Shown one piece after another: positions 5,143-30,755 of a stretch of DNA of 36,249 nt (its first letter is position 1; each line of letters starts with the position of its first letter). Both the position numbers and the translations under genes were made by a program. The stretch comes from a virus. Lineage: Duplodnaviria; Caudoviricetes. The stretch spans positions 1-36,249 of IMG/VR virus record IMGVR_UViG_3300028423_000524. One strand, 5' to 3'. Under the pieces are notes generated by a model. It was not told the DNA's origin and did not search any database. It worked only from the letters and a program-made list of their open reading frames with translations.

Positions 5143-6872
5143 TGCCACGAATCCCCTACAATCCGACAAGGCAACCAGTGCGCCCGCAACGTCAGGGGCG
5201 CGTCAATGCGTCCGGTGCGATCAATGCGATTGGCCGGGAGGCGGCTTCTCAAGGTGAGGTTGTCCGCATGTTCCAGGGCGCAATCGGCACCGGGATGGCG
5301 GCGATTCGCGATGATCGGGAACGGGAAATCAACGCGGATCGAGTGGGCTTTGAAACAAAGCTGGCCGATGCGCAGTCCCGGCTAAAAATGGAGTTGGACA
5401 GCATCCCGGTGGCCGATGGCGTGGACGTGGAAGCGCAGACCCGCGAAATCATCGAGAAGGAATACGGCGCTCTACGCGAATACCTGAACGATCCGGGCAA
5501 CGTCCGGCACAAGTCCGCGATGAAGGAATTCGAGACGGTCCTGAGCCAAGCGGAGGCCACGGCGCAACGCGGGGCGGCTGAGTTTGTTTACGGCTACGAG
5601 AAAGACCGCTCGGCATCTCGGGGCGCGCGGATGGTTGAAATCGGCATCAAGACGCGCAACGAGGAAATGATTGAGCAAGGCATCTTCGTCCAGCACGAGG
5701 CGGGCAAGTTTGACGGGAACACTGCCGACACCGTTTATGAAAAATCGGTTGAGCAAATGAAACAGATCGCCGATCAAAACCGTCTGGAGCAATTTGAGTC
5801 TGCCAAGATGGACGGCGACTGGAAAGCGGCGAAAGAGATTGTGGACAGCCTGGAAGGTCCCGGCTGGACGAACGAGAAGAAGGCAAACTTCATTCGGGAG
5901 GAACGCTCTCGCGCGGCTTACAGCGAGACGGCTCTGGCGATCAAGCAAGCAGGCTCGCGTGGTGAATTTGAAGACCTGATGGAGCAGGTCGAGGAGCGCA
6001 AAGATTTGACCGCGCAAAACCGGCCTGTCCTCATGCGCTCGGTCAGCGCGGGGATGGCTCGCTTGGAGCGGGCGCAGATCAGCAACGAGCGGGCACTCCT
6101 GAAGGCTTTTGAGCGCGGTGAGGGCGACTGGTCGGAATACGAGCGGATGAAGCAATTGGACACCGCCGGGGGGCTTACCCCGGACGCTGAGAAGGCGCTC
6201 AAGCCGATTCTGGAAGCAGAAGAATCTCAGTATGAAATGAATGCCCGGTTCGAGCGCGACGAACAAAGCGTGGCCTACAAGTCGATGCTCGATGAGTTGG
6301 CGGCGGCTCGTTTCGGCAAAACGTCCACCGGGCGGATCGATACGAACGACCCGGACGGGAAGAAGATCACTCCGAAGCGGCGCAAGGAATACCAGTCGAT
6401 GCTTGATGAGATTAACGCGCTTCCGGTCGGCAGGAAGGCGAAGGCACGGCTGCTGGATGAATGGCTCCAGGTGCGGGCAACTGACTTGATTGATCCGGGA
6501 AAAGAAGACCCGCGCGGGTTTTTCAGTATCGCTGATGAAATTTCCGACGATGAGGCCAATTTTCGCGGGGAGCTTATTGGTGGCTATCGTGCATTGCTGG
6601 CTGATGGTTCTGTCCCGGAAGACTTCGGCCAGTCGGTCGAGCAGGATGACAAGCGCGTTGCCGAGTTTTTCCGCAAGACGAAAGACCCGACCCCGGAGCA
6701 AATCGAGAAGCTCCGTCAGGACGTGCTCGCACCACTTGAGGCTTCGACGATGCGGCGCAAGGCTCGGGGTGAGGGTGAATCGTCTCCAACGGAAATTTTA
6801 AGCAAGGAGGAATACGATGCACTTCCCCCGGGCGCACAGTTTATTTACAATGGAAAGGTGGGCGTGAAATGA
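5142..6872 (+). CDS. internal virion protein, gp15-like
   Basis: MPRIP start coupled to the upstream TAA; helical and charged; C-terminal EEYDALPPGAQFIYNG motif; synteny. Confidence 0.55.
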   Translation: MPRIPYNPTRQPVRPQRQGRVNASGAINAIGREAASQGEVVRMFQGAIGTGMAAIRDDREREINADRVGFETKLADAQSRLKMELDSIPVADGVDVEAQTREIIEKEYGALREYLNDPGNVRHKSAMKEFETVLSQAEATAQRGAAEFVYGYEKDRSASRGARMVEIGIKTRNEEMIEQGIFVQHEAGKFDGNTADTVYEKSVEQMKQIADQNRLEQFESAKMDGDWKAAKEIVDSLEGPGWTNEKKANFIREERSRAAYSETALAIKQAGSRGEFEDLMEQVEERKDLTAQNRPVLMRSVSAGMARLERAQISNERALLKAFERGEGDWSEYERMKQLDTAGGLTPDAEKALKPILEAEESQYEMNARFERDEQSVAYKSMLDELAAARFGKTSTGRIDTNDPDGKKITPKRRKEYQSMLDEINALPVGRKAKARLLDEWLQVRATDLIDPGKEDPRGFFSIADEISDDEANFRGELIGGYRALLADGSVPEDFGQSVEQDDKRVAEFFRKTKDPTPEQIEKLRQDVLAPLEASTMRRKARGEGESSPTEILSKEEYDALPPGAQFIYNGKVGVK

Positions 6873-9800
6873 CTTGGGACCCGTTTAAAGACGAAGACGC
6901 AAAACTGATTGAAGACGCGCCCGAATGGGACCCGTTTCGGGATGAAGGGGCGAAGCAGTTGGATGCCGACCCGGTGAAAGTAATCGACGTTGACCCGTCT
7001 GCATTTAAGGGGCGCGAGGGCTACGGCGAACCGGAAAAGGTCGCGGTGGCCGATTGGCTTGAGAAGAACCACAGCGTGAAGTTTGAGGACGGCGTTCGCG
7101 ACTACGAAGGCAAGGCAAAGGCGTTTGGCCTGTCCGGCGATCCGAAAGGCGACTTTGAGACGCTAAAGCACCGGGAGAGCACTCTCAATGCTCGTCGTCT
7201 CAAGTCTTTGAATCCCACGTTTGGAGGAACGCCGGAAGCTAAGGCTTCACTGGCAAAAATGGGGCGCGAGGGTGTTGAGTTTATCGACAAAGCTCCTCGA
7301 ACTGCGGCGGCGTCTCTTGCTCGATCCGGGTTTTCTACTGCGGAAGGGGTTTTTCGCGGAACCGGGGAAGTGTTTATGCGCTACACGCCGAACGGCTGGC
7401 TTTTAAATAAGCTTGGCTTGGACTTGCGGGACGCCACGGAACCCGTAGCGCAGTGGTTGAGTGAGGCCGAGGAAATCTCAGGCCGCGCTTACGGGGAGGA
7501 TCGAAGATTCCGCGAAACGCTCTTAGGCCAAACGATTCAAGGGGCTTCTTCGCTGGCTCCCCGTGCGGCTTCCGGGGGCGTTGGCGGCATGGCGGCGGGT
7601 GCGACCGGGGCAAAACTGGCATTTGGCGCGGCAGCGGGCGGCTTGTATTTCAATGAAGGTATTAGCGAGGCGGAATCTACAATCGGAAAACAGTTTCAAG
7701 ACTTCACCGAAGAAGAAAAGTCGGGGGCGGTTTTTACGTCTGTGGTGTATTCGGTCGTGGCCGGGGCGGTGGATCGCTACGCATTCGGAAAGATGGGCCT
7801 CGGCAAATTGATCGGCGGGAAAAATCCACAAGTAGGCAAGCGGACGGTTCGCCGGGTAATCGAAGGGGCGCTTTCCGAGGGCGGCGCGGAATGGACGCAA
7901 GGCCGGGTGCTTAAGCAATTTGCAGATTGGTTTCAAGATCAGGATCGTGAAGTATGGACGATGGACGCGCTAAAGGAGTCATGGCGAGATTTCCTTATCG
8001 GCGCGATTGTCGGCGGCGGTGTCGGCGGCGGCTCTAGGGTGATGGAAACCTTAGTTCAGGAAAGTGAAGCCGGGATGAAAGCAGAAATTGACGCTTTTAC
8101 TACGCGGCAACTTCCCTTCACGGAAAGCGGAGAATATAATCCGTTTTACCGTCCAGAGCCCCTTTTCGATAAAGATGGGAATGCTGACGCGAAAGTTCTT
8201 GAGCTTTCAAAACAAATTCGCGGCTTGGGCGATTCCGAAGAAGACCAGATCAAGAAGTCTGAGCTAGAGGAACAGTTAAGCGCACGACTCCAGCAACTTG
8301 CCGAAACCCGCGTGGACCCGACAAGCCGAGATGCGGCGCAACTGCGGAAATTTAACACAAAGCTGGCTATGGGCCTGAATCCGACCGAAGGCGCGACCCC
8401 GGCGGACTGGAAATTCATTGACGAGTATTATTCCGATGAGGAAGTCGGCGCTCACGTCGTGCAGGCGACTGGTTCCGAGGATTTGGTTCCGCTGGCTCTG
8501 GAAGCCAAACACGGCGACGAAGAGGCGCAAATGGAATACGTAAACCGAACGCTGGTCCCGGCGGATTCGGAAATCATGGTCGAGGGTGGGGTCACCCCGG
8601 AAGAAGCGGAAGCGGCCCACATGAATTGGGCACGCGAGGCCGGAAATGCAGAACAACGGCGAGAGCTAACCAAAGAAGAACTGGAAAAAGAAGCATTTGA
8701 GTGGGCGAAATCTTTTAGAGGTGATCGCCTTTTTGAAGGCCAAAGTATTGAAGACTTAACAAATCAATCACTTACATTTGAAGATGATTTGAATGCTCTT
8801 AGAGATCAGGGCGTTCCCGAGTGGAAAATTGAAAGGTTTGCTTTTGAAGCAATTCAGGCGGCTGGCTACGATCCCACCGACCCGGATAATGCGCCTAGTA
8901 AAATGGCTATCAATGGGCGGAACGAATATGAGTTTCGTCGCGGCGTCTGGCGCGATGTGTCTAAGCTATTCCGGGGCGCAAACGCTTTGACTGTTTTCCA
9001 CGAAGTGAGTGAAGGCCATTTAAAACGAGAGATAAACGAGGGGAATCTTGATTGGTATGCAGTGGCAACATGGCGCGAGATGATGGGTGACGGGCCAAGT
9101 GCCGGTCAAGTTGATCTGGAAAGTGCCGCCGAGCAAAAAAAATTGACGGAGTGGACAAGTGAGCAGGTTGAGTCATGGCTTTTGGGTAAAACGAAGGCTT
9201 TAGAGCGTGAAGGGCAAATGCCGAAAACCTTCAGGACGTGGTTGACTGCGGTTTTTACTGAAATTAAGCATCTGCTCAAGCGGGCCGCGCAACTCAAGGG
9301 CATGGATCGCCGGGGCGAACTAGACCCTGAGTTTAAAGCGTTTCTTGAGCGGTCGAACGGGCTGGATGAAAATTTCCTGCGCGAACGGCTGGAACCTCCG
9401 GCAGAGAGCGTTTCCGGCGATACGAGCGTCACGCTGGCCGAATACCTCTCCGAGAGTCCGGGACTGACAAAGACCGGGCTTCCCCGGCCTGACATGCTAG
9501 CCGATCCGCAATGGCGGACTGAAGTTGAACGTCTCTGGGAGTTCACCGGGAAAAACTGGAAGCGTTACCCGAAGCATGATCCGGCAAATCTCGATGACTT
9601 GGCGATGGGGATGCGCTCGGCGGGCTTTGATGTTCGCACGGTGGACGATGCCTTGCAATTGGTCGAGCGTTCACTGTCCGGCGAGGAAGTGCGTTCGTTT
9701 GGCGATTCGGCCTTCGAGGGCTTTGATTCCGGGCGTGATGCTGCGGGGAATGCGGCGAGTTATCAGCTTCAATACCGGATCAATCATCAACCACACGAAG

Positions 9801-12730
9801 AAGACACGCGATTAGATGATTTGAGTGAAATGTTTGGTGATGACATTTACGGTCAAAATGCTCTACAGTATTACGGAGCCGGACAAGATGGTGAAAGCGA
9901 AGCAATTCAGGTTTTTCAACGGGTTCGCGGCAAGCCTGATGCGAATGTCACAGTCTATCGAGTCGTTCCTGACTTCGTGGATGAGATCAACCCTGGCGAT
10001 TGGGTGACGGTCTCAAAAAAGGCTGCGGAACAAATGAATTACCCTGAGTTCCTTGGGCGCAACGATCAAGGCAACGAGCAAAAATCAAAGATCGTTAGCA
10101 AAGTAGTTAAGGCCGAGGAAGTGCGCTGGCCGGGTGATTCGCTTTTAGAGCAAGGTTATTTCCCTAGCTATTCACTTGGCCGGGCTAAAGTGAAGACAAA
10201 CCCGGAAACGCAAACCTACCCGACGAAGGACGGCGTTCTGATCGGTCCGGCCACCTATTCGCTGAAAGCCTTCCACGGCACTCCGCACAAGGTGGACAAG
10301 TTCAAGACTGAGAACATCGGCACAGGCGAAGGGGCGCAGGCTTACGGGTATGGGCTTTACTTTGCGGAGAATGAGGAAGTGGCGAAAGACTACCAGAATG
10401 TTTTAAGTGGGCGCTCGCTTAAAGCAAAAGACGGGCGCCCGTTCCTTGACTTGGTGGAGCGACCGGGGGCAAAAAAAATTCTTAACGAAATTTCATTTGC
10501 GTTAAGTTTAGGGAAGAATTTTGACAACGAAATAGCGGTTTTGGAAAATAGAATCGAAACCGCTAGTAGGTTTATTGGTAGAGACGACAATCCGGCCGAT
10601 AACGAGAAATTTGTCGAGGATGCAAAGGAGGCACTTGAAGCACTTAAAGAGCTTGAGGCTGGACCAGGAGGCTCCCTCTACACCGTAGAGCTAAACGTCG
10701 AGCCCGACGAACTGCTTGATTGGGATGCGCCGTTGAGCGAGCAAGGCCAGCTAATCGAAAAATTAAGAGAGCTTGTTGTTGGGGATATAGATGAAAAACT
10801 CGAATCTATAGAAGAACGCTTTGAAGAACATGAGGACATGCCAATGGGCGACAATGCCCGCAGGTGGATAGATGCCTTAGTTGAGGACGTTTATGACCTT
10901 GATGCGCTTGAGGACGCAAAAGCAGTTGATGAAGCGCTGGCCGATGAATTAATGGAAGTTATTCAAGATTTAGATATTTTGAATCCATTGGCGACCGGAT
11001 CGCAGGCTTATTCGGCAATTCAAAGCGTTATCAAAAGCAACGAACAGGGAGCTTCCGAAGCCCTTGCCTCCCTCGGCATCAAAGGAATCCGCTATCTGGA
11101 CGGCGCAAGTCGTAGCGACGGCGAAGGCTCCCGCAACTACGTCATTTTCAACGAAGAAGACATCACCATCACCGAGGAAAACGGGGAGCCTGTGAGCTTG
11201 GCGACGTATCAGCTAAAGCGCATCACCGAAACGCCCGAGTTTCAAAACTGGTTCGGCGACTCCAAGGTGGTCGACGAGAATGGCGAGCCGTTGGTGGTTT
11301 ATCACGGGACGGATGCGGACTTTTCTCAATTCGATGCTAATCGTGGGATCGGGGTTCACCTTGGGACAATTGACCAAGCGGAAGGGGTGGCTGATGAGAT
11401 TGCCGATGAGGGCGGCACGGCTGCCATTTATCCGGTTTACGCTTCGATAAAAAAATCAATCCGCCTTCGTGATGAAGGTGCGTGGGAAGGTAGGACAGTT
11501 GTCAACATGGTCAATGAGATCGCGGGGACCAGCTTGAGGCCATCGGCAAGCTCCCGCGACATTCGCGCGGCTTTGCAAGAATTGGGGTATGACGGCATCG
11601 TTTATGAAAACAGGTTCGAAGGTGATGAGTACGCGGACTCTTATATCGCCTTCGACCCCACCCAAATCAAATCCGCAACGGGCAACCGTGGCACGTTCGA
11701 CCCGGACGATCCGAGGATCACTTACAGTATGGTCCGCATCGACGACCTTGGCGGCGATCCCAACGAAACTTACACCGTTCGCGAGCGAACCCCGGAAGAG
11801 CGGGTGCTCGCTCAAAAGCTCCGCGAGTTTCGCACGGATACCTGGCTCACTCAGGCGCAAAAGAACCGGATCAACAAGACCCCTGCGGACGGGAGGGCGA
11901 AGCTTCGGGCAGAGTTCGAAAAAGACTTTAAGCGTGAATTGAAAGTCCTCCAGACGAAGGCCACTGAATCGCGCAAGCGTCAACGTCTCCAGCAGTCCGC
12001 AGAGCGCAAGATTGCCAAGGTCGAGGCCCGGCGGCTGGAGCAAATCAAAACCCTGCACGATCAGGGTGAGGACGTGACGGCCAAACTGGAGGAACTGGAC
12101 CGGATCAAGAAGGGGCTCCCCACGGCTGTCCGGCACCGCCTGGGGGGTGAAGTGCAGGTTTCCCGGCGCAAGACCCGCATGGGCAGGCAGAACGAAGTCA
12201 ACCGGCGGCTTGTGCGGGCGCGTGAGCTGGCCGAAGGACACGAAGCGACCCGGCGGAAGGCTTGGCTGCGGCGGACGTTGAACAGGTTCGGGCATCGCGG
12301 GCAGAAAGCTCAAAAGCAGGCCGACGAAATGACAGCCTATGTTCGCGACCTGCTTCAAGTGGCCGGATACGCAGCCAACTCCGATACAGTTGAGCGCGTT
12401 AAAGAAGGTGTCCCGAAACCGGAAACCCTCACGGATGCAGAGTATGAGCAAACTATTGTAGACTTTCTTGGAATACTACAGCCTCACCGCCGGGACTTTG
12501 GACGGATTGAGGCCGCGTATTTTGCAACACAAGACCTTATCCGTTCTGGGAAATATGAACGGGCACAGTTCCGAGAGGCGCGAAAGGCTGAAGCTCAAGA
12601 ACGTATCGAGAAAGGGCAGGAAATCGTTTTGAGGGGCAAGCCGACGCCAGACGCAAACGAGCTGAAAGCAAAAAATCTTAGCCGGACGAAGCTTGATCGA
12701 AGTATGTCGAATATTCGTTGGGTATTTTGA
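6869..12730 (+). CDS. large internal virion / polyvalent protein (gp16-like) with ART-like modules; probably continues into 12693..14654
   Basis: 1953 aa. Contains FQNWFGDSKVVDENGEPLVVYHGT, FHGTPH..KF....IGTGEGAQAYGYGLYF and VYRVVP....INPGDWVT blocks typical of phage polyvalent proteins, plus a degenerate FHEVSE zincin-like motif. Confidence 0.75.
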   Translation: MTWDPFKDEDAKLIEDAPEWDPFRDEGAKQLDADPVKVIDVDPSAFKGREGYGEPEKVAVADWLEKNHSVKFEDGVRDYEGKAKAFGLSGDPKGDFETLKHRESTLNARRLKSLNPTFGGTPEAKASLAKMGREGVEFIDKAPRTAAASLARSGFSTAEGVFRGTGEVFMRYTPNGWLLNKLGLDLRDATEPVAQWLSEAEEISGRAYGEDRRFRETLLGQTIQGASSLAPRAASGGVGGMAAGATGAKLAFGAAAGGLYFNEGISEAESTIGKQFQDFTEEEKSGAVFTSVVYSVVAGAVDRYAFGKMGLGKLIGGKNPQVGKRTVRRVIEGALSEGGAEWTQGRVLKQFADWFQDQDREVWTMDALKESWRDFLIGAIVGGGVGGGSRVMETLVQESEAGMKAEIDAFTTRQLPFTESGEYNPFYRPEPLFDKDGNADAKVLELSKQIRGLGDSEEDQIKKSELEEQLSARLQQLAETRVDPTSRDAAQLRKFNTKLAMGLNPTEGATPADWKFIDEYYSDEEVGAHVVQATGSEDLVPLALEAKHGDEEAQMEYVNRTLVPADSEIMVEGGVTPEEAEAAHMNWAREAGNAEQRRELTKEELEKEAFEWAKSFRGDRLFEGQSIEDLTNQSLTFEDDLNALRDQGVPEWKIERFAFEAIQAAGYDPTDPDNAPSKMAINGRNEYEFRRGVWRDVSKLFRGANALTVFHEVSEGHLKREINEGNLDWYAVATWREMMGDGPSAGQVDLESAAEQKKLTEWTSEQVESWLLGKTKALEREGQMPKTFRTWLTAVFTEIKHLLKRAAQLKGMDRRGELDPEFKAFLERSNGLDENFLRERLEPPAESVSGDTSVTLAEYLSESPGLTKTGLPRPDMLADPQWRTEVERLWEFTGKNWKRYPKHDPANLDDLAMGMRSAGFDVRTVDDALQLVERSLSGEEVRSFGDSAFEGFDSGRDAAGNAASYQLQYRINHQPHEEDTRLDDLSEMFGDDIYGQNALQYYGAGQDGESEAIQVFQRVRGKPDANVTVYRVVPDFVDEINPGDWVTVSKKAAEQMNYPEFLGRNDQGNEQKSKIVSKVVKAEEVRWPGDSLLEQGYFPSYSLGRAKVKTNPETQTYPTKDGVLIGPATYSLKAFHGTPHKVDKFKTENIGTGEGAQAYGYGLYFAENEEVAKDYQNVLSGRSLKAKDGRPFLDLVERPGAKKILNEISFALSLGKNFDNEIAVLENRIETASRFIGRDDNPADNEKFVEDAKEALEALKELEAGPGGSLYTVELNVEPDELLDWDAPLSEQGQLIEKLRELVVGDIDEKLESIEERFEEHEDMPMGDNARRWIDALVEDVYDLDALEDAKAVDEALADELMEVIQDLDILNPLATGSQAYSAIQSVIKSNEQGASEALASLGIKGIRYLDGASRSDGEGSRNYVIFNEEDITITEENGEPVSLATYQLKRITETPEFQNWFGDSKVVDENGEPLVVYHGTDADFSQFDANRGIGVHLGTIDQAEGVADEIADEGGTAAIYPVYASIKKSIRLRDEGAWEGRTVVNMVNEIAGTSLRPSASSRDIRAALQELGYDGIVYENRFEGDEYADSYIAFDPTQIKSATGNRGTFDPDDPRITYSMVRIDDLGGDPNETYTVRERTPEERVLAQKLREFRTDTWLTQAQKNRINKTPADGRAKLRAEFEKDFKRELKVLQTKATESRKRQRLQQSAERKIAKVEARRLEQIKTLHDQGEDVTAKLEELDRIKKGLPTAVRHRLGGEVQVSRRKTRMGRQNEVNRRLVRARELAEGHEATRRKAWLRRTLNRFGHRGQKAQKQADEMTAYVRDLLQVAGYAANSDTVERVKEGVPKPETLTDAEYEQTIVDFLGILQPHRRDFGRIEAAYFATQDLIRSGKYERAQFREARKAEAQERIEKGQEIVLRGKPTPDANELKAKNLSRTKLDRSMSNIRWVF

Positions 12731-19904: not shown

Positions 19905-20323
19905 GCCGCCGAATCACAAACCACTACAAGCCTGGTCTCAAAGCCCGCGCCCGGTTCCACGATCCCCTGCACATCCTGGCCCACGATGTCCCGATCAAAG
20001 ACCGTCCCTGGGAGCTCCTTACCGATTTTCGCTTCTACTCCGCCATCCTCGGCAAAGTCATCACCGTGCCCGAAGGTTACCGCACCGACTTCGCCAGCGT
20101 CCCCCGCTTTTTCTGGCGCATCATTCCGCCGTATGGTCGCTACGCCAAAGCCGCCGTAGCCCACGACTACCTATGCGACCAGCGCGGCCGCACCGGCATC
20201 GACAGCGCCACCACCCACAAAGTCTTCCGCGAGGCCATGGAGGTCCTAAAAGTTCCCGCCTGGAAACGCGCCCTTATGTATCGCGCCGTCAAATGGTTCG
20301 GGCCAAAGTTTCCGGCTCAATAG
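19901..20323 (+). CDS. DUF1353 family protein
   Basis: ITVPEGYRTDFASVPR...AAVAHDYL...F.EAM....V...KR.LMY.AV..FG signature. Confidence 0.85.
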   Translation: MSRRITNHYKPGLKARARFHDPLHILAHDVPIKDRPWELLTDFRFYSAILGKVITVPEGYRTDFASVPRFFWRIIPPYGRYAKAAVAHDYLCDQRGRTGIDSATTHKVFREAMEVLKVPAWKRALMYRAVKWFGPKFPAQ

Positions 20324-21266
20324 CAAAATAAGCCTCGGCCTCGGCCTTTGTCGCAACGCCCCGGTAGTGCTGATACATCATCCCCGGTCCCGATTCATGC
20401 CCGGCGATCAGCATCGTCCGCGAAATATCGCCATAAAGTGCCAGATGGTAAGTGAAAAAAGAGTGCCGGCAAACGTCCTGACTCCAGCGGCCAATCGCCG
20501 CCTTCGCTATCCGCGTGGCTTGGCGCGATCTTCCGGGGGCCACCGGGCTGCTTGACTTTCCGGGCTGTAACCATTGCCAAAGGTTTTCCGGCAAGCCTTC
20601 CAGTGGCCTACCCGTCCGGGTTTTCGACTGGTCGGCGTTGATGCGGATAATGCGGTTCTCGGTGTCCACCTGACGCCACAAGAGCGGCGGTTTGTGCTGC
20701 GAGCGGATCTCACTCGGGCGAACTCCCGCGAAAAGCATCAGGGCCAGCATCGGCGCATAAGTTCCGGCGGATCGCATGACTTGTTCCGCTTCGGCGGGGG
20801 TCAATATGTCAATCCGGCGCTCGGTCTTTGCCGCGTCGTCGTTGATCCCGGTGGCCGGGTTCTTGGACACAATAGGCGGCTCCTGCTTCGTCGCCCATGA
20901 GAAGCAAACCGAAATTGCCCTGGCGTAGCCCTGCGCCGTCGCCGGGGACACGGGCAGGGCTTCGATCCAAGCGCGAATTTCCGGGCGCGTCACGCTGTCC
21001 GCAACGCGGTCTCCGAAAGTGTCGGCGAATACGTCGAGCTTAGTCTGGTAAAAGGCCGTCGTCGCCGGGGAGAGGTTTTTGCGGATAGACCGCCGGATAA
21101 AGCCGTCGATCATCCGACTGACCGGCTGCGGGTCGATCTGGCCCCGAAGGCCGACGGCACGGAGCGCGGCCTGTTCCAGCGTCATGCCTGAGCCTTCCAG
21201 CGCAGTGAGGGCGGCGCGGGCGTCCATTCGCTCGGCGGGGGTTAAAGCTCTGTCTTTTCGTGGCAT
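20289..21266 (-). CDS. int: tyrosine recombinase (phage integrase)
   Basis: FAGVRPSEI (Arg), SKT (Lys), DVCRHSF, AGH, HY (Tyr); adjacent to a tRNA-derived attP. Start could be the TTG at 21287. Confidence 0.9.
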   Translation of the reverse strand: MPRKDRALTPAERMDARAALTALEGSGMTLEQAALRAVGLRGQIDPQPVSRMIDGFIRRSIRKNLSPATTAFYQTKLDVFADTFGDRVADSVTRPEIRAWIEALPVSPATAQGYARAISVCFSWATKQEPPIVSKNPATGINDDAAKTERRIDILTPAEAEQVMRSAGTYAPMLALMLFAGVRPSEIRSQHKPPLLWRQVDTENRIIRINADQSKTRTGRPLEGLPENLWQWLQPGKSSSPVAPGRSRQATRIAKAAIGRWSQDVCRHSFFTYHLALYGDISRTMLIAGHESGPGMMYQHYRGVATKAEAEAYFAIEPETLARTI

Positions 21267-21438
21267 GTTGTCAAAATTTGGCAACACACCAGACGGAAAT
21301 CTAAGGTGTGTGGCATTGTGGATTATAGTCTAGTGCGTCGGCTAAAAAGCGGTTCAAGATGGGGTAATATGAGTAACAATGGAAACTTACGTCGAACATT
21401 GGAATACTTAGAATTGAGGCGGAAACCCGCTAAAACAC

Positions 21439-26960: not shown

Positions 26961-27414
26961 GCGAAAATCAAGCCCCCTACAATTCGACGCGGACATCCTC
27001 CGGAGAAAAGGATTCGTCCAGCGACCTGATGGCCGGTGGGAAAAACCCGCTGCTGGTGTGGATCGATTGCAAGGTCGAGAGCACCCCGAACAGGCGGGAG
27101 CATTGGACCAAAACCCGAAGCAGGAACCGAAGCCAAAAACTGGCCGTAAGAAAAGTGCTCGCCGGGTTAAATCCGCCGGAGGTTCCCGGCGAAAGCAAGA
27201 GCACACGATGATTGTGACACTCACCTGCCATGTGCCGAGATACTTTGATAGCGACAACGCGACGATTGCGACGAAAGCGATCCGGGACGAGATCGCGGAC
27301 TGGTTGGGCGTGGATGACGGCGACAGGCGGGTTCTCTGGGAAGTTGACCAAACACTCACGCGGGGCGTTCCTGGCGTTTGTGTGGCGATTAGAAGGGCGG
27401 CGGATGCAGGTTGA
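26950..27414 (+). CDS. RusA-like Holliday junction resolvase; N-terminal frame ambiguous (26950 vs 26957)
   Basis: D.DN....K..RD......GVDD catalytic pattern lies in 27208..27414. Confidence 0.6.
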   Translation: MSNERKSSPLQFDADILRRKGFVQRPDGRWEKPAAGVDRLQGREHPEQAGALDQNPKQEPKPKTGRKKSARRVKSAGGSRRKQEHTMIVTLTCHVPRYFDSDNATIATKAIRDEIADWLGVDDGDRRVLWEVDQTLTRGVPGVCVAIRRAADAG

Positions 27415-27838
27415 CCGGACAGAACTCAACGCGGCGGTGGCCGGGGCGCACAAGCGGGGCATCTTGACTGAGCGGCTGGCCGTGCTCGCGATGGGTATTG
27501 CTCGGGGGTATCTGGCTTCGGAGAAGTTTAAGGGTTACAGTGAGGCGGATCGCGAGGATATTTTTGGAGCGTGGACTGTGCGTTTTGTTAAAACGTGGTC
27601 GCGATTAGATCCGGAGAAAAACTGCCATGCTTACATCACGCGGGGGGTCGAATTGGCATGGAAGGATCACGCCCGGAGCACGTCGAGGCGACTCAGGCGG
27701 GAACACGCTAAGGCAGAGGCGATGTTGGCGGAAGAGACGGACCGGATTCAGCGGTTTGTGCGATCCTACGAAGCTGAGTTGGGCGACGGGCCGGGGATTG
27801 TGCCGATGGAGGATTTTGAGAGGAAAATTAAACACTGA
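27404..27838 (+). CDS. T4 gp55-like small sigma factor (region 2)
   Basis: IA......KF.GYS...RED.........W...DPEK...AYIT.....AW resembles gp55 region 2; last backbone early gene before the accessory region. Confidence 0.65.
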   Translation: MQVDRTELNAAVAGAHKRGILTERLAVLAMGIARGYLASEKFKGYSEADREDIFGAWTVRFVKTWSRLDPEKNCHAYITRGVELAWKDHARSTSRRLRREHAKAEAMLAEETDRIQRFVRSYEAELGDGPGIVPMEDFERKIKH

Positions 27839-27957
27839 GGACAGGCACGAAGCGAAACAATTACAACCAACGAAAGAAAACCAATGAGTGACGAAAATGC
27901 AAAATGTAACGACCAACCCGCGAGCGAGCGGAGTTGTCCTGATCCGGCTGGTTATGC
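27827..27957 (-). repeat. attC-like site 1 (131 bp)
   Basis: Plus strand: AAC-actga-GGACAGGCAC ... GTTGTCCTGATCC-ggctg-GTTATGC. The loop holds ATG 27884. Confidence 0.75.
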
Positions 27958-28183
27958 TCCCTTCGTGCCTCCGTTTCACTACCGGACCGAGCTGCGCTAC
28001 ATAGCAGATTCGAGAGGCGCGGTCATGGCTGATCTTAGAATGTGGCCTGCGCTGACGGGCTACAAAATCAAAGACCAAGAACGAATCGGGAATTGGATCG
28101 CGGAGTCTTTGAGCGACTGCGCTTTTGCGGACCGAGACGGTGATAACCTTCAGCATAACGCTGAGATGGATAATGGCGAGTAG
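27884..28183 (+). CDS. cassette 1 hypothetical protein
   Basis: Starts in the site 1 loop and stops in site 2. Confidence 0.65.
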   Translation: MSDENAKCNDQPASERSCPDPAGYAPFVPPFHYRTELRYIADSRGAVMADLRMWPALTGYKIKDQERIGNWIAESLSDCAFADRDGDNLQHNAEMDNGE

Positions 28184-28281
28184 ATCGCCTGTGTGACTTT
28201 AACAATCAACGAAAGATAGAATATGCCTAATGATACAGAAAACGCCAATGCCTCGCCATTGATCCAATCGACTGGTTCGCA
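28153..28281 (-). repeat. attC-like site 2 (129 bp)
   Basis: Minus strand: TGCGAAC-CAGTC-GATTGGAT-C-AATGGCGAG ... CTCGCCATT-ATCCATC-TCAGC-GTTATGC, with two extrahelical bases. Confidence 0.8.
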
Positions 28282-28732
28282 ATCGATTGGCTGGATGGGG
28301 TCAATCCGAGACAAAGACGCTGGGCATGTAAATGTGCACCAAGGCTGTGCCTCGCTGTCTTGGGGTATGATGGAAAGGGTGCGAGCAAAATTTCCAGATG
28401 ATGAAGAATTTGAAGTTTATATTTCAATTCGTCCTGAGAACGTAGAGGACAGGCACGAAGTGAGGAACGAACGAAGTTGTCCTGATCCGGCTGGTTCTCG
28501 ACCGAAGGTTAAGGACTGTCGATACTGGAACAAACTGCCACTACTGGCGACAAGCGATTGGATTGTGAGTGCTCTTCTAGCTCAAGAGCTAGAAGATGAG
28601 AACGAACGCTACCGAAAAGCATTAGAGGAAATTGCTGGCAACGAATCGGGCGTAAACGCTGAACGGGCAGACGGTATTGCAATCGCCGCATTAGCTTTCG
28701 AGAACACTGAGGACAGGCGCACAGGAGAATGA
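28223..28732 (+). CDS. cassette 2+3 in-frame fusion, hypothetical protein
   Basis: Starts in the site 2 loop, reads through site 3 (ENVEDRHEVRNERSCPDPAGS) and stops in site 4. Confidence 0.65.
   Translation: MPNDTENANASPLIQSTGSQSIGWMGSIRDKDAGHVNVHQGCASLSWGMMERVRAKFPDDEEFEVYISIRPENVEDRHEVRNERSCPDPAGSRPKVKDCRYWNKLPLLATSDWIVSALLAQELEDENERYRKALEEIAGNESGVNAERADGIAIAALAFENTEDRRTGE
28435..28500 (-). repeat. attC-like site 3 (66 bp)
   Basis: TGAGAAC-gtaga-GGACAGGCAC ... GTTGTCCTGATCC-ggctg-GTTCTCG. Confidence 0.8.
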
Positions 28733-28807
28733 CTATGAGTGACGAACCAGAAACGACGAAACGAATGGCGGCGCGATTCCCGTGTTGCCTGATCCGGCTG
28801 GTTCGCA
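28699..28807 (-). repeat. attC-like site 4 (109 bp)
   Basis: CGAGAAC-actga-GGACAGGCGCAC ... GTGTTGCCTGATCC-ggctg-GTTCGCA. The loop holds AGGAG and ATG. Confidence 0.78.
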
Positions 28808-29058
28808 GAGCCGGGCCGAATGTGTGCTGGGTAATGATGATGGTTTTTATTCTGACCGCAAACAGCCGAGCCGCTGGGGTTGATGCGCTCCTAGTGGCGA
28901 TCTTATCCGTGCGGCAGAAGTGTTTTTTTTACGAGGCTCATGTTGCGCTCCGAGTGCTCTTGCATGATGCGGGCAATGGAAATAACTCATTTGTGAAGCT
29001 CTTGGCCCCATTATGTGGCTGGCCCCATTTTGTGGTCTTGCCTTCGATTGCGCCTTGA
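28729..29058 (+). CDS. cassette 4 ORF, probably truncated; C-terminal part doubtful
   Basis: Good start in the site 4 loop (ATG 28729 or 28735), but the sequence after ~28810 looks non-coding and no matching closing core was seen. Confidence 0.3.
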   Translation: MTMSDEPETTKRMAARFPCCLIRLVRRAGPNVCWVMMMVFILTANSRAAGVDALLVAILSVRQKCFFYEAHVALRVLLHDAGNGNNSFVKLLAPLCGWPHFVVLPSIAP

Positions 29059-29099
29059 ACTCATAGGACTGCTGGTTTCTAATTATATTATTCCCCTTT

Positions 29100-29990
29100 A
29101 TGCCACTAAGTAAGACACATATTTCTGCAATATCTCGGATGTTCTCTGCAGGCGTCTTGCATGAACTGGCGAATACGGGGCGTTCGCCGCTGTTTGCTCG
29201 TTTGTTTTGCCAGTCCGGTTTGTCGGAAATGCAAAAAGGGGAGACGCCAACCGTGGGTGCAGCTTATGAAGCTGCTTTCTCAGTTTTGCGTCAATCAGGT
29301 ATTCGCGACGAATACATTTATCGTGCCGCATTGACTCATAATATCCTGCTCGGCCGTCATTCCCTCAATTCAGCTAGTATGTTGACTGAGTTTAGGGCCG
29401 GTAAATGTAAGGTCGACTTGGTCATTTTAAACGTAACAGGGACGGCCTACGAAATTAAATCTGACCGAGATTCATTGTCTCGTCTCAGCAATCAGCTGCT
29501 AAATTACCGTAAGGTTTTCTCGAAAGTTTACGTGATTGCCGGTAAGTCGCATGTGCAAGAAATTCTGGAGTCGACCCCTGCTTCGATAGGAGTTCTCAGC
29601 TTGTTGAGATGGAACCGGATTCATACTGTTAGGGAGGCGCAGGAGGACTTTGATGCTTTATGTTCAGATGCGATATTTGATTCGCTCCGGGTCGAAGAGG
29701 CTCGGCAACTCTTGCGAAATTTGGACGTCTCGGTGCCTGATGTTCCGAATATGCATCTCCGTAGTGTGATGCGTGAGTTATTTGCGGATCTTTCCACACG
29801 CAAGGTGCATGAAGAAATGGTTTCTGTTCTTAAGGAAAAGCGCAATTTGGCATCTCTGGCATCAGCGGTTGAAAAGTTGCCTGCCGCTCTGCAACCTGCC
29901 GTCTTGTCTCTAAAGCTTCGTCCGACCAGCCGTGAACGGTTGGTTTCAGTCATGGGCACACCAATGGACGAGGCCTTAACTTGGGCTTAA
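29100..29990 (+). CDS. sce7726 family protein (PD-(D/E)XK nuclease-like)
   Basis: R.EY.Y.......LLGRHSL....ML.EFR.G..K.DLVILN.....YEIKS.RD...RL..Q...Y...F..VYV signature; followed by an sce7725-like start. Confidence 0.8.
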   Translation: MPLSKTHISAISRMFSAGVLHELANTGRSPLFARLFCQSGLSEMQKGETPTVGAAYEAAFSVLRQSGIRDEYIYRAALTHNILLGRHSLNSASMLTEFRAGKCKVDLVILNVTGTAYEIKSDRDSLSRLSNQLLNYRKVFSKVYVIAGKSHVQEILESTPASIGVLSLLRWNRIHTVREAQEDFDALCSDAIFDSLRVEEARQLLRNLDVSVPDVPNMHLRSVMRELFADLSTRKVHEEMVSVLKEKRNLASLASAVEKLPAALQPAVLSLKLRPTSRERLVSVMGTPMDEALTWA

Positions 29991-29997
29991 CTTAAAA

Positions 29998-30381
29998 ATG
30001 TATTATCCTTATTTCCGAGGTAAGCAGTTTGAACTGATCGCAATTCGAGAGACAGCGGCTCTGATGGCTGCATCTGGATTCGTCCCCATTATCGAACCGG
30101 TTCGCGAGGCCATGAATGGCTTGAGACGAGCTCTGGAAGCGATTTGCGAAGCAAACGGGAGCGCTATATTGGTCGTGAATCCGGACAATGGCGATCACGC
30201 TGGAAACCATCTACATGCGCTCCAAAAATTCAGGAGCATATTTTTTGAGACTTTCCCGAAAGGTGAGAAGGATGATCCGGATCGAATTGTAATTACGAAT
30301 ATGAAAAGCCGCTCGAGAATCACAATTGATGAGGGGCCAGTTGAGACAATTCGCCCGCCGATTTGGGATTCTTTAATCTAA
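29998..30381 (+). pseudogene. truncated sce7725 family gene fused to an unrelated 3' fragment
   Basis: MYYPYFRGKQFELIAIRE...PIIEPV...VNP..GD is the sce7725 N-terminus. Recognisable similarity ends near 30205 and the ORF is only 127 aa. Confidence 0.65.
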
Positions 30382-30399
30382 CAGACCATTAGAAGGAAC
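30376..30399 (-). other. attI-like simple site
   Basis: Minus strand GTTCC-TTCTAAT-GGTCT-GTTAGAT: a perfect GTTRRRY core, 5-bp spacer and degenerate L box, no hairpin partner. It marks the right edge of the accessory region. Confidence 0.5.
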
Positions 30400-30407
30400 T
30401 GCAAAGC

Positions 30408-30755
30408 ATGAGAAACCCTAATAACTACACTCAAGCGCAGCGGCGATTAGGTGGCCTTAATCGACCAAAGCGCGAAGAGCGGTTTGAGGAGGTGATTGCT
30501 CGCTTCCGCGCTGACCGTAAGGGGCATGTCGTGGCCGAGGGCGTTACATACTCAGCCCAAGGTGAATCCCATTGGCAGGTGCGGCACTCGACGGCCCATG
30601 CGGATCAATTCGACGTGTTGGCCGATGGCCGGAGGATTACCAGGGGCGGTCCGCGCCAACTACCTACGCCGTGGATTCGCAAAAAGGCGAGGGCGGCGAA
30701 GGAGCAAAACGCAACTTACGCGGCTATCGGCGTAAATACTGACGATGAGCGATAA
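30408..30755 (+). CDS. hypothetical protein
   Basis: AAGGA upstream of the ATG; basic 115 aa ORF before terS. Confidence 0.55.
   Translation: MRNPNNYTQAQRRLGGLNRPKREERFEEVIARFRADRKGHVVAEGVTYSAQGESHWQVRHSTAHADQFDVLADGRRITRGGPRQLPTPWIRKKARAAKEQNATYAAIGVNTDDER
30729..30738 (+). promoter_or_regulatory. putative late promoter GGCGTAAATA
   Basis: Ends 6 nt before the terS ATG. Confidence 0.6.

Follow-up and report, generated by a model that had tools for sequence, protein, structure and literature searches.

The DNA analysed here, referred to as the window throughout, is an entire virus record of 36,249 bases (96% complete). It encodes terminase, a head-tail connector, RecT, a PDDEXK exonuclease and, on the minus strand, a tyrosine integrase, a gene set pointing to a temperate tailed phage. 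Within a rightward operon, between a sigma-like gene on one side and the terminase genes on the other, lies an array of four attC-type hairpins. The region contains the following features:

27404..27838, plus strand: sigma-factor-like phage gene (Pfam Sigma70_r2, E 1.6e-5; PHROG 234) at the distal end of the array
27831..27953, plus strand: site 1, a long attC-type hairpin found by the attC scan, with bottom-strand anatomy on the coding strand
27884..28183, plus strand: ORF of 99 aa, made of the site-1 leader, body 1 and a site-2 tail (NAEMDNGE)
27954..28156, plus strand: body 1, ends complementary (ATGC/GCAT)
28157..28277, plus strand: site 2, a long attC-type hairpin found by the attC scan
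28223..28732, plus strand: ORF of 169 aa, made of the site-2 leader, body 2, site 3, body 3 and a site-4 tail (NTEDRRTGE)
28278..28438, plus strand: body 2, ends complementary at 3 of 4 positions (CGCA/TGAG)
28439..28496, plus strand: site 3, a short attC of 58 nt, of a type found in bacterial arrays
28497..28702, plus strand: body 3, ends complementary (CTCG/CGAG)
28703..28803, plus strand: site 4, a long attC-type hairpin found by the attC scan
28804..30379, plus strand: rearranged segment from site 4 to the docking site, with a 109-aa ORF without family, an sce7726 gene and part of an sce7725 gene
30376..30394, minus strand: attI-like simple site (TTCTAAT, 5 nt, GTTAGAT), with AAC at 30380-82 on the plus strand
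30408..30755, plus strand: conserved phage gene past the docking site and ahead of the terminase small subunit (9 relatives, 56-76% identity)

The attC scan looked for AAC, a spacer of 5-8 nt, 3 bp, an extrahelical base, 4-6 bp, a second extrahelical base, a stem and a closing GTT. Applied to both strands of all 36,249 bases, this scanner, which was designed after the four sites had been seen, returned exactly sites 1-4, all on the plus strand and within 1 kb, and gave 6 matches in total on 40 dinucleotide shuffles (0.15 per window). The sites have the R box AAC/GTT, an unpaired central spacer, a paired L box and stem and, in all four, two extrahelical bases at the canonical positions of one arm. 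The first of these is A in 4/4 sites and likewise in several bacterial sites of the same family; the usual first extrahelical base of attC is G, then T (PMC7439510). Left to fold freely, none of the four beats its shuffles on either strand (z -0.68 to +1.24, none below -0.7), and the free minimum-energy structure reproduces the whole attC hairpin in site 3 and a part of it in site 2, but is a different one in sites 1 and 4. The first and last 4 nt of bodies 1, 2 and 3 (core and inverse core) are complementary at 4/4, 3/4 and 4/4 positions, and such complementarity of body ends is a signature of integron cassettes.

With four attC sites and 0 matches to the IntI model TIGR02249 in the 96%-complete record, hence no intI in cis, the locus is a CALIN as defined by Cury et al. 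2016 (PMC4889954). The array probably works like an integron cassette array; by the polarity of its genes it is not a classical one. Between 27300 and 30800 there was no Rfam family, and a terminator scan of the region stayed at chance level, as did a promoter scan (2 matches, 2.7 expected), which gave no consensus promoter at the attI-like site. One sigma-70-like promoter match lies in the site-2 loop (28193-28222), just ahead of the ATG at 28223. In blastn the array matched none of 50,697 GenBank phages, and related loci in viral contigs were not found for one body, the sigma-like gene and the gene at 30408.

A sequence-only reading had proposed that the sites double as stop and start modules in a conserved frame. 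All of its coordinates are correct (ATG 27884, TGA 27885-87, TAG 28181-83, ATG 28223, ATG 28729, TGA 28730-32 and ATG 28735): in the ORFs starting at 27884 and 28223 the AAC of sites 2, 3 and 4 is an in-frame Asn codon (HNAEMD, ENVEDR, ENTEDR), and sites 1, 2 and 4 carry both a stop and an ATG. In site 1, GAAAG stands 7 nt ahead of ATG 27884, which opens a leader of 23 codons ending in SCPDPAG. The sigma-like gene enters this site in another frame and ends at TGA 27836-38, in the unpaired spacer, so that the Asn-frame TGA 27885-87 is unused here. In site 2 the stop TAG 28181-83 and the start at 28223 are separated by 39 nt; here, too, GAAAG lies 7 nt ahead of the ATG, and the leader ends in LIQSTG. 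Site 4 has AGGAG 1 nt from ATG 28729 and 7 nt from ATG 28735, a spacing which suggests that the overlapping ATG 28729 may not be the start in use. Site 3 offers no in-frame stop or start and is read through as a peptide linker.

Bodies 1-3 are free of stops from the Gly frame at GTT to the Asn at the next AAC, and in each body only this plus-strand frame, among the six, scores positive for phage codon use (0.14 to 0.26). Bodies 1 and 2 have a stop-free minus-strand frame, too. Sites 1-3 are left in the frame G-GT-T (Gly), and site 4 as GTT (Val; CCLIRLVR). The proposal that a single frame is conserved thus applies to entry at AAC; it fails for exit, where site 4 differs and viral exits are mixed.

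The sequence-only view of site 1 as an attC of the site-3 type, with an A-rich initiation segment added in the loop, fits, since the loop of site 3 is the form found in bacterial arrays. Two loci (L068:3294-3424 and L031 near 5304) have an attC loop with three tandem A-rich repeats containing ATG, which is possibly a snapshot of loop expansion. On the minus strand of L023 (3900-4020), the right half of a site-2-type leader is present with its ATG and the left arm is absent; this is a leader kept after loss of the hairpin.

The polarity of the sites, which the sequence-only reading had overlooked, is opposite to that of the control and bacterial arrays compared here. In the window it is the 3' arm of the coding strand that bears the extrahelical bases. 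In two controls, a superintegron piece of Vibrio phage p16 and TJE1, the same scanner places the anatomy on the non-coding strand, and in bacterial arrays the longest frame of the opposite strand is equal or longer in 35 of 38 bodies. Sites 1-4 are purine-rich on the plus strand (0.56-0.64), and with the R box forced, 4/4 fold better on this strand. The bottom strand of attC is purine-rich and is preferred by IntI, which cleaves its AAC after the second A (PMC5027507, PMC7439510); recombination of the top strand is 1,000-10,000 times less frequent (PMC5027507). The sites are therefore inverted relative to the genes, with the coding strand as bottom strand, and extrahelical bases and purine skew together identify the Asn codon AAC as the canonical crossover. 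The mobile unit is likely a site plus its downstream body, with a start of its own and a borrowed tail and stop. A classical cassette holds a top-strand ORF upstream of attC and largely outside it; the ORFs of the window are of bottom type and cross both R boxes.

To place these frames in a wider context, nine related arrays were kept from pattern scans, and chance loci were dropped before any count. Among 17 metagenome pattern loci true sites were present only in L013 and L020, viral pattern loci (13 + 26 + 28) had sites in nine distinct contigs, and 120 genome pattern loci gave a convincing site only in L105. MW202573 showed no convincing site under the attC scanner, and the pattern loci L001-L005 were rejected as chance loci in unrelated genes. 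Bodies were counted between consecutive sites less than 1,200 nt apart and with at least 3 of 4 complementary end positions. This gave 25 viral-type bodies including the three of the window, with the metagenome contig L013 counted as viral-type. The bacterial set comprised 38 bodies, 3 of them from L020, which was assigned to this set after its orientation had been seen.

In 16 of the 25 viral-type bodies (13/22 without the window) an open frame runs the full length and on into Asn, and 9/25 show no such span. Among the same 22 bodies the other two frames reach 3 and 3 (binomial p 0.002, for arrays that are related and non-independent and with the +2 frame partly closed by TAA-C). The Asn-spanning frame was detected in 4/38 bacterial bodies and in 0/13 bodies of the Vibrio and TJE1 controls; the Fisher p of 1.8e-4 for 13/22 versus 4/38 is inflated, viral bodies being shorter. 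The bias at AAC expected by the sequence-only reading is thus seen in related arrays, and so are starts within the sites: of the 16 Asn-spanning bodies, 11 have an ATG in their own site and 14 a stop in the next one. Their exit frames are Gly in 10, Val in 4 and the third frame in 2. A conserved entry frame with a variable exit frame is what a crossover at AAC predicts. Body ends are perfectly complementary in 18/25 viral-type bodies, compared with 0/25 for the two flanks of the same site.

It had also been claimed that any cassette order gives terminated, translationally coupled proteins. When the units were cut in silico at AAC, all 15 orders and subsets left each ATG-started ORF in frame and terminated, so that the claim holds to this extent, given an AAC crossover and a unit of site plus downstream body. 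As to coupling in any order it is overstated: site 3 lacks a start, site 2 has a gap of 39 nt, and with site 3 placed first, body 3 has no start even with AAC crossover. With crossover at GTT, site 4 would throw bodies 1 and 2 out of frame.

The protein tags predicted at both ends were recovered on unrelated bodies. Searches, in one of which 1/21 matches was discarded as due to chance (P0032 was left out of the leader set for this reason), gave 24 proteins with a site-1 leader, including that of the window (23 others). The first body codon can start with the T of GTT in 23/24 of these, and in 17/24 head and tail can be perfectly complementary over 4 nt around the terminal Asn, compared with 7.7 +/- 1.7 (max 16) in 20,000 permutations. 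An Asn-tail peptide motif, chosen post hoc and given no weight as a test, occurs at 17/24 ends and in 1/51 internal windows. None of 26 cassette proteins has a PHROG family, and the 99-aa ORF (27884..28183) has no Pfam, NCBIfam or PHROG family.

What a body is joined to varies at both of its ends. P0003 and P0046 have the same leader and body and diverge directly after Asn. One body was found in eight proteins, which between them carry five different tails after LAFEN and five types of leader. P0002 consists of the site-1 leader, body 3 of the window fused directly to it, and the site-4 tail; it could have arisen by exchange on the GTT side or inside a 32-nt arm that sites 1 and 3 have in common (91% identity). 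P0002 and the five leader types on one body indicate that both junctions vary, and AAC alone is insufficient.

These proteins bear on the geometry of the sequence-only reading, an explanation by classical units in which a body plus its downstream site is swapped at the coding-strand GTT and the site lends its start to the next body. P0002 equals the 101-aa product of GTT-side excision in silico, one leader heads 24 bodies, site-2-type sites precede six different bodies, and many loose contig ends lie at GTT. Nevertheless, we regard this explanation as quite unlikely. Extrahelical bases and purine skew make the coding strand the bottom strand, whereas GTT exchange would call for the far rarer top-strand recombination cited above (PMC5027507); the mixed exit frames mean that shuffling at GTT would often shift the frame; and the attI-like site stands at the 3' end of the array with joins at AAC.

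This attI-like site at 30376-30394, also overlooked in the sequence-only reading, is a candidate entry point for cassettes. Of the 16 related contig pieces listed, 4 begin at 30380, a point at which, on our reading, many upstream sequences converge; in a further piece the motif recurs at the same distance. Attachment sites of this type also close the arrays in L040, L295 and G406. On the minus strand of the phage L040, two near-identical ones (near 681 and 4221) each close a cassette run of their own.

Between site 4 and the docking site the segment 28804..30379 has non-matching ends (head CGCA, tail ATCT) and thus departs from cassette-end complementarity; a TGCG-AAC end for the site-4 body ahead of the docking site was not found. 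A gene of the sce7726 family occupies 29100-29990 on the plus strand. The ORF that follows (29998-30381) belongs to the sce7725 family in its first 75 aa, and its TAA overlaps the AAC of the docking site. The part from 29044 to 30207 (sce7726 plus 75 codons of sce7725) is similar to lake and sediment metagenome contigs and is fused to an unrelated tail; it resembles a bacterial module that was captured and truncated. One hypersaline-lake contig matches 29666-30108 with zero differences.

Metagenome contigs from four runs provided population data. Among 19 loose contig ends listed of 100, 9 are within 1 nt of AAC or GTT, and loose ends occur at both borders of site 1 (27831 and 27953). Four other viral contigs contain five complete copies of site 2, with different flanks each time; all five keep the distance from start to GTT, and in one the ATG is replaced by CTG. 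The listed indels inside the array (n=4) are all located at 28190-28194, between the stop and the start of site 2. Site 1 alone is present in dozens of contigs from two lake-water runs with a summed depth of about 1,000-1,400 (below 5 for the neighbouring body). Its leader is widely shared.

These data speak against the view that the array is a frozen remnant, captured once and immobile, whose in-loop ATGs and frame bias are by-products of open antisense frames. Such a view could draw on bodies 1 and 2, which are open on both strands, on the chance Asn-frame runs in bacterial arrays and on the rearranged segment beyond site 4. The codon scores, however, favour the plus frame in 3/3 bodies, the copies of site 2 keep their ATG-to-GTT distance with indels only between stop and start, and relatives show many different neighbours at exact junctions. 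A remnant of this kind is very improbable.

An IntI that would act on the sites was not found in the window. Its integrase (20289-21287) matches only XerC-type and PHROG 1 models, and a tyrosine recombinase was present in 1/9 related viral records searched, all of which are fragments. Site 3 agrees at 39-45 of 58 positions with each of five further sites of 58 nt. One of these comes from L020, and the other four are from three genomes in the same phylum as G002 (the locus L098 of G002 is titled Verrucomicrobiota). In this alignment of six, 78/78 cells are paired, 7/13 pairs show compensatory changes, and covariation is 0.626 compared with 0.216 in shuffles, for a structure drawn from the same sequences. 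In the phylum with site-3-type attC, IntI exceeds the cut-off in 39/151 genomes. The gene at 30408 was found in 0 of 401 genomes, and relatives of the portal in this phylum reach only 24-29% identity.

IntI occurs together with arrays of the inverted type in a related phage and in a bacterial chromosome. The phage G406 (terminase, portal, head, tail fibre) has an IntI above the cut-off, preceded by an attI-like site, and an inverted-type array with genes on the same strand as intI. This attI-like site has a tail complementary to the head of the final cassette, which lies at the opposite end of the linear record; array and intI are presumably contiguous across the record ends. On the same record (G406:C1; L299, L303) IntI lies beside a primase gene, the attI-like site occupies 121-140, and at least 9 attC, two of them identical, lie at the other end. 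In the bacterial integron L295, three leader-bearing bottom-strand cassettes stand beside a chromosomal intI, and the first reads through AAC into the attI side. These three intI-proximal inverted cassettes (L295:1873-2705, G109:C24) have RBS and ATG in the attC loop, and two encode small Cys-rich proteins; the integron adjoins a gene which, from reading its translation, resembles isoleucyl-tRNA synthetase.

A further explanation does largely without IntI: host-derived attC would now serve mainly as short homology patches and portable translation signals, and RecT and exonuclease would swap genes by homologous recombination. The window does encode RecT and the PDDEXK exonuclease and has no IntI, the arm common to sites 1 and 3 suffices for P0002, and the site-1 and site-2 families are 83-90% conserved along their whole length. 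Complementarity of body ends around the R box, perfect in most bodies and in no same-site flanks, would however go unselected by homologous recombination, P0003 and P0046 switch between unlike sites exactly at Asn, and such cassettes adjoin intI and attI in G406 and L295. We consider this explanation unlikely.

We therefore favour, as probable on the sequence features described, a phage-borne integron-type array of bottom-strand genes, whose units would be moved by IntI, likely that of the host, at the coding-strand AAC. Each hairpin stands ahead of its gene; IntI acting in trans would cut at AAC and move the hairpin together with the downstream body. Selection has likely fixed AAC as an Asn codon, whereby any neighbour would provide an in-frame tail and usually a stop. 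New cassettes may enter at 30380, the promoter-distal end of the rightward operon. The in-loop ATGs would serve as starts, the long sites may go back to a short site of host type whose loop gained an A-rich segment with RBS and ATG, and short sites like site 3 would act as linkers fusing two bodies. Re-pairing of leader and body on the GTT side, as in P0002, is likely due to rarer top-strand recombination or to RecT acting on shared arms. The absence of IntI from the record, the free folding of the sites, their first extrahelical base A, the 9/25 viral-type bodies with no span into Asn, the non-matching ends of the segment beyond site 4, and P0002 together with the five leader types on one body count against this AAC/IntI model.

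The backwards layout might be explained by an operon running toward the docking site, in which only bottom-strand genes would be transcribed; the hairpin would then sit where start signals must be. If replication goes with transcription, the bottom strand would in addition serve as template for the lagging strand, a situation that favours attC folding (PMC5371416).

A broader reading, which we put forward only tentatively and as less likely than not, is that phages in lakes and sediments assemble proteins combinatorially by integron chemistry, with both feet of the hairpin as exchange points and leaders, bodies and tails dealt independently and in frame. AAC would then be used by bottom-strand and GTT by top-strand recombination, attC would be portable start, stop and linker modules, and the phages would have their cassette pool in common with bacterial chromosomal integrons. 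The GTT-side step might be a natural route by which genes gain attC, the unsolved step of cassette genesis.

Integron cassettes are usually taught as promoterless top-strand genes with attC behind. The sites of the window, of the same family as those of bacterial arrays, precede the gene and would encode its first 18-24 residues, and the crossover triplet is an in-frame codon. This layout would allow a host integrase, likely borrowed, to reorder cassettes without breaking proteins. If IntI drives the reordering, phages rearrange and fuse their accessory proteins by means of the host's integron system, and chromosomal integrons receive such cassettes (L295). The occurrence of a single leader on 24 unrelated bodies offers a testable handle on how genes become cassettes. 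Annotation is affected as well: through common N- and C-terminal tags, hypothetical phage proteins that are unrelated become linked when searched by similarity.

Canonical integrons (PMC5027507, PMC5371416) agree with the window in the R box (AAC/GTT), an unpaired spacer of 5 nt, extrahelical bases at 16 and 21, a bottom strand rich in purines, cassette ends that are complementary and the polarity of the array relative to attI, here the attI-like site. The window differs from them in its first extrahelical base A, in bottom-strand genes that begin in their own attC and end in the next, and in that transcription would come from the far-end phage operon instead of Pc beside attI. Phage CALINs, for which five of six tested sites recombined with IntI1 (Qi et al. 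2023, PMC9892861), resemble the array in having at least 2 attC in one orientation, no nearby intI and small hypothetical genes. The attI-like site is a feature of the window in addition, and bottom-strand genes, in-attC starts and a fixed frame are not described in the accessible part of that paper. In the published array of the virulent phage TJE1, re-examined here, genes lie on the top strand, unlike those of the window.

Translation signals in recombination sites are known from ORF-11 of attI1, which takes its stop from the inserted cassette, and from short attC ORFs. These are separate short top-strand ORFs aiding downstream translation by re-initiation (PMC8876359), whereas a site of the window would contribute the N-terminal residues of the cassette protein itself and, to the neighbouring protein, a C-terminal tail. 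That an attC can be both recombinogenic and protein-coding was demonstrated with synthetic linker attC (Nivina et al. 2020, PMC7439510); those were engineered, while the read-through linker of site 3 is natural. Phage attC clusters, sites aiding translation and engineered coding attC are thus already known; the inverted polarity with in-site starts and the Asn frame appear to be new. In the literature searched, with subscription papers thinly covered, we found no account of phage cassettes that lie on the bottom strand, start within a site and keep a fixed Asn frame.

Elsewhere in the window, a virion-region protein of 1,953 aa (6869-12730) contains an ART-PolyVal ADP-ribosyltransferase domain (Pfam E 1e-29).
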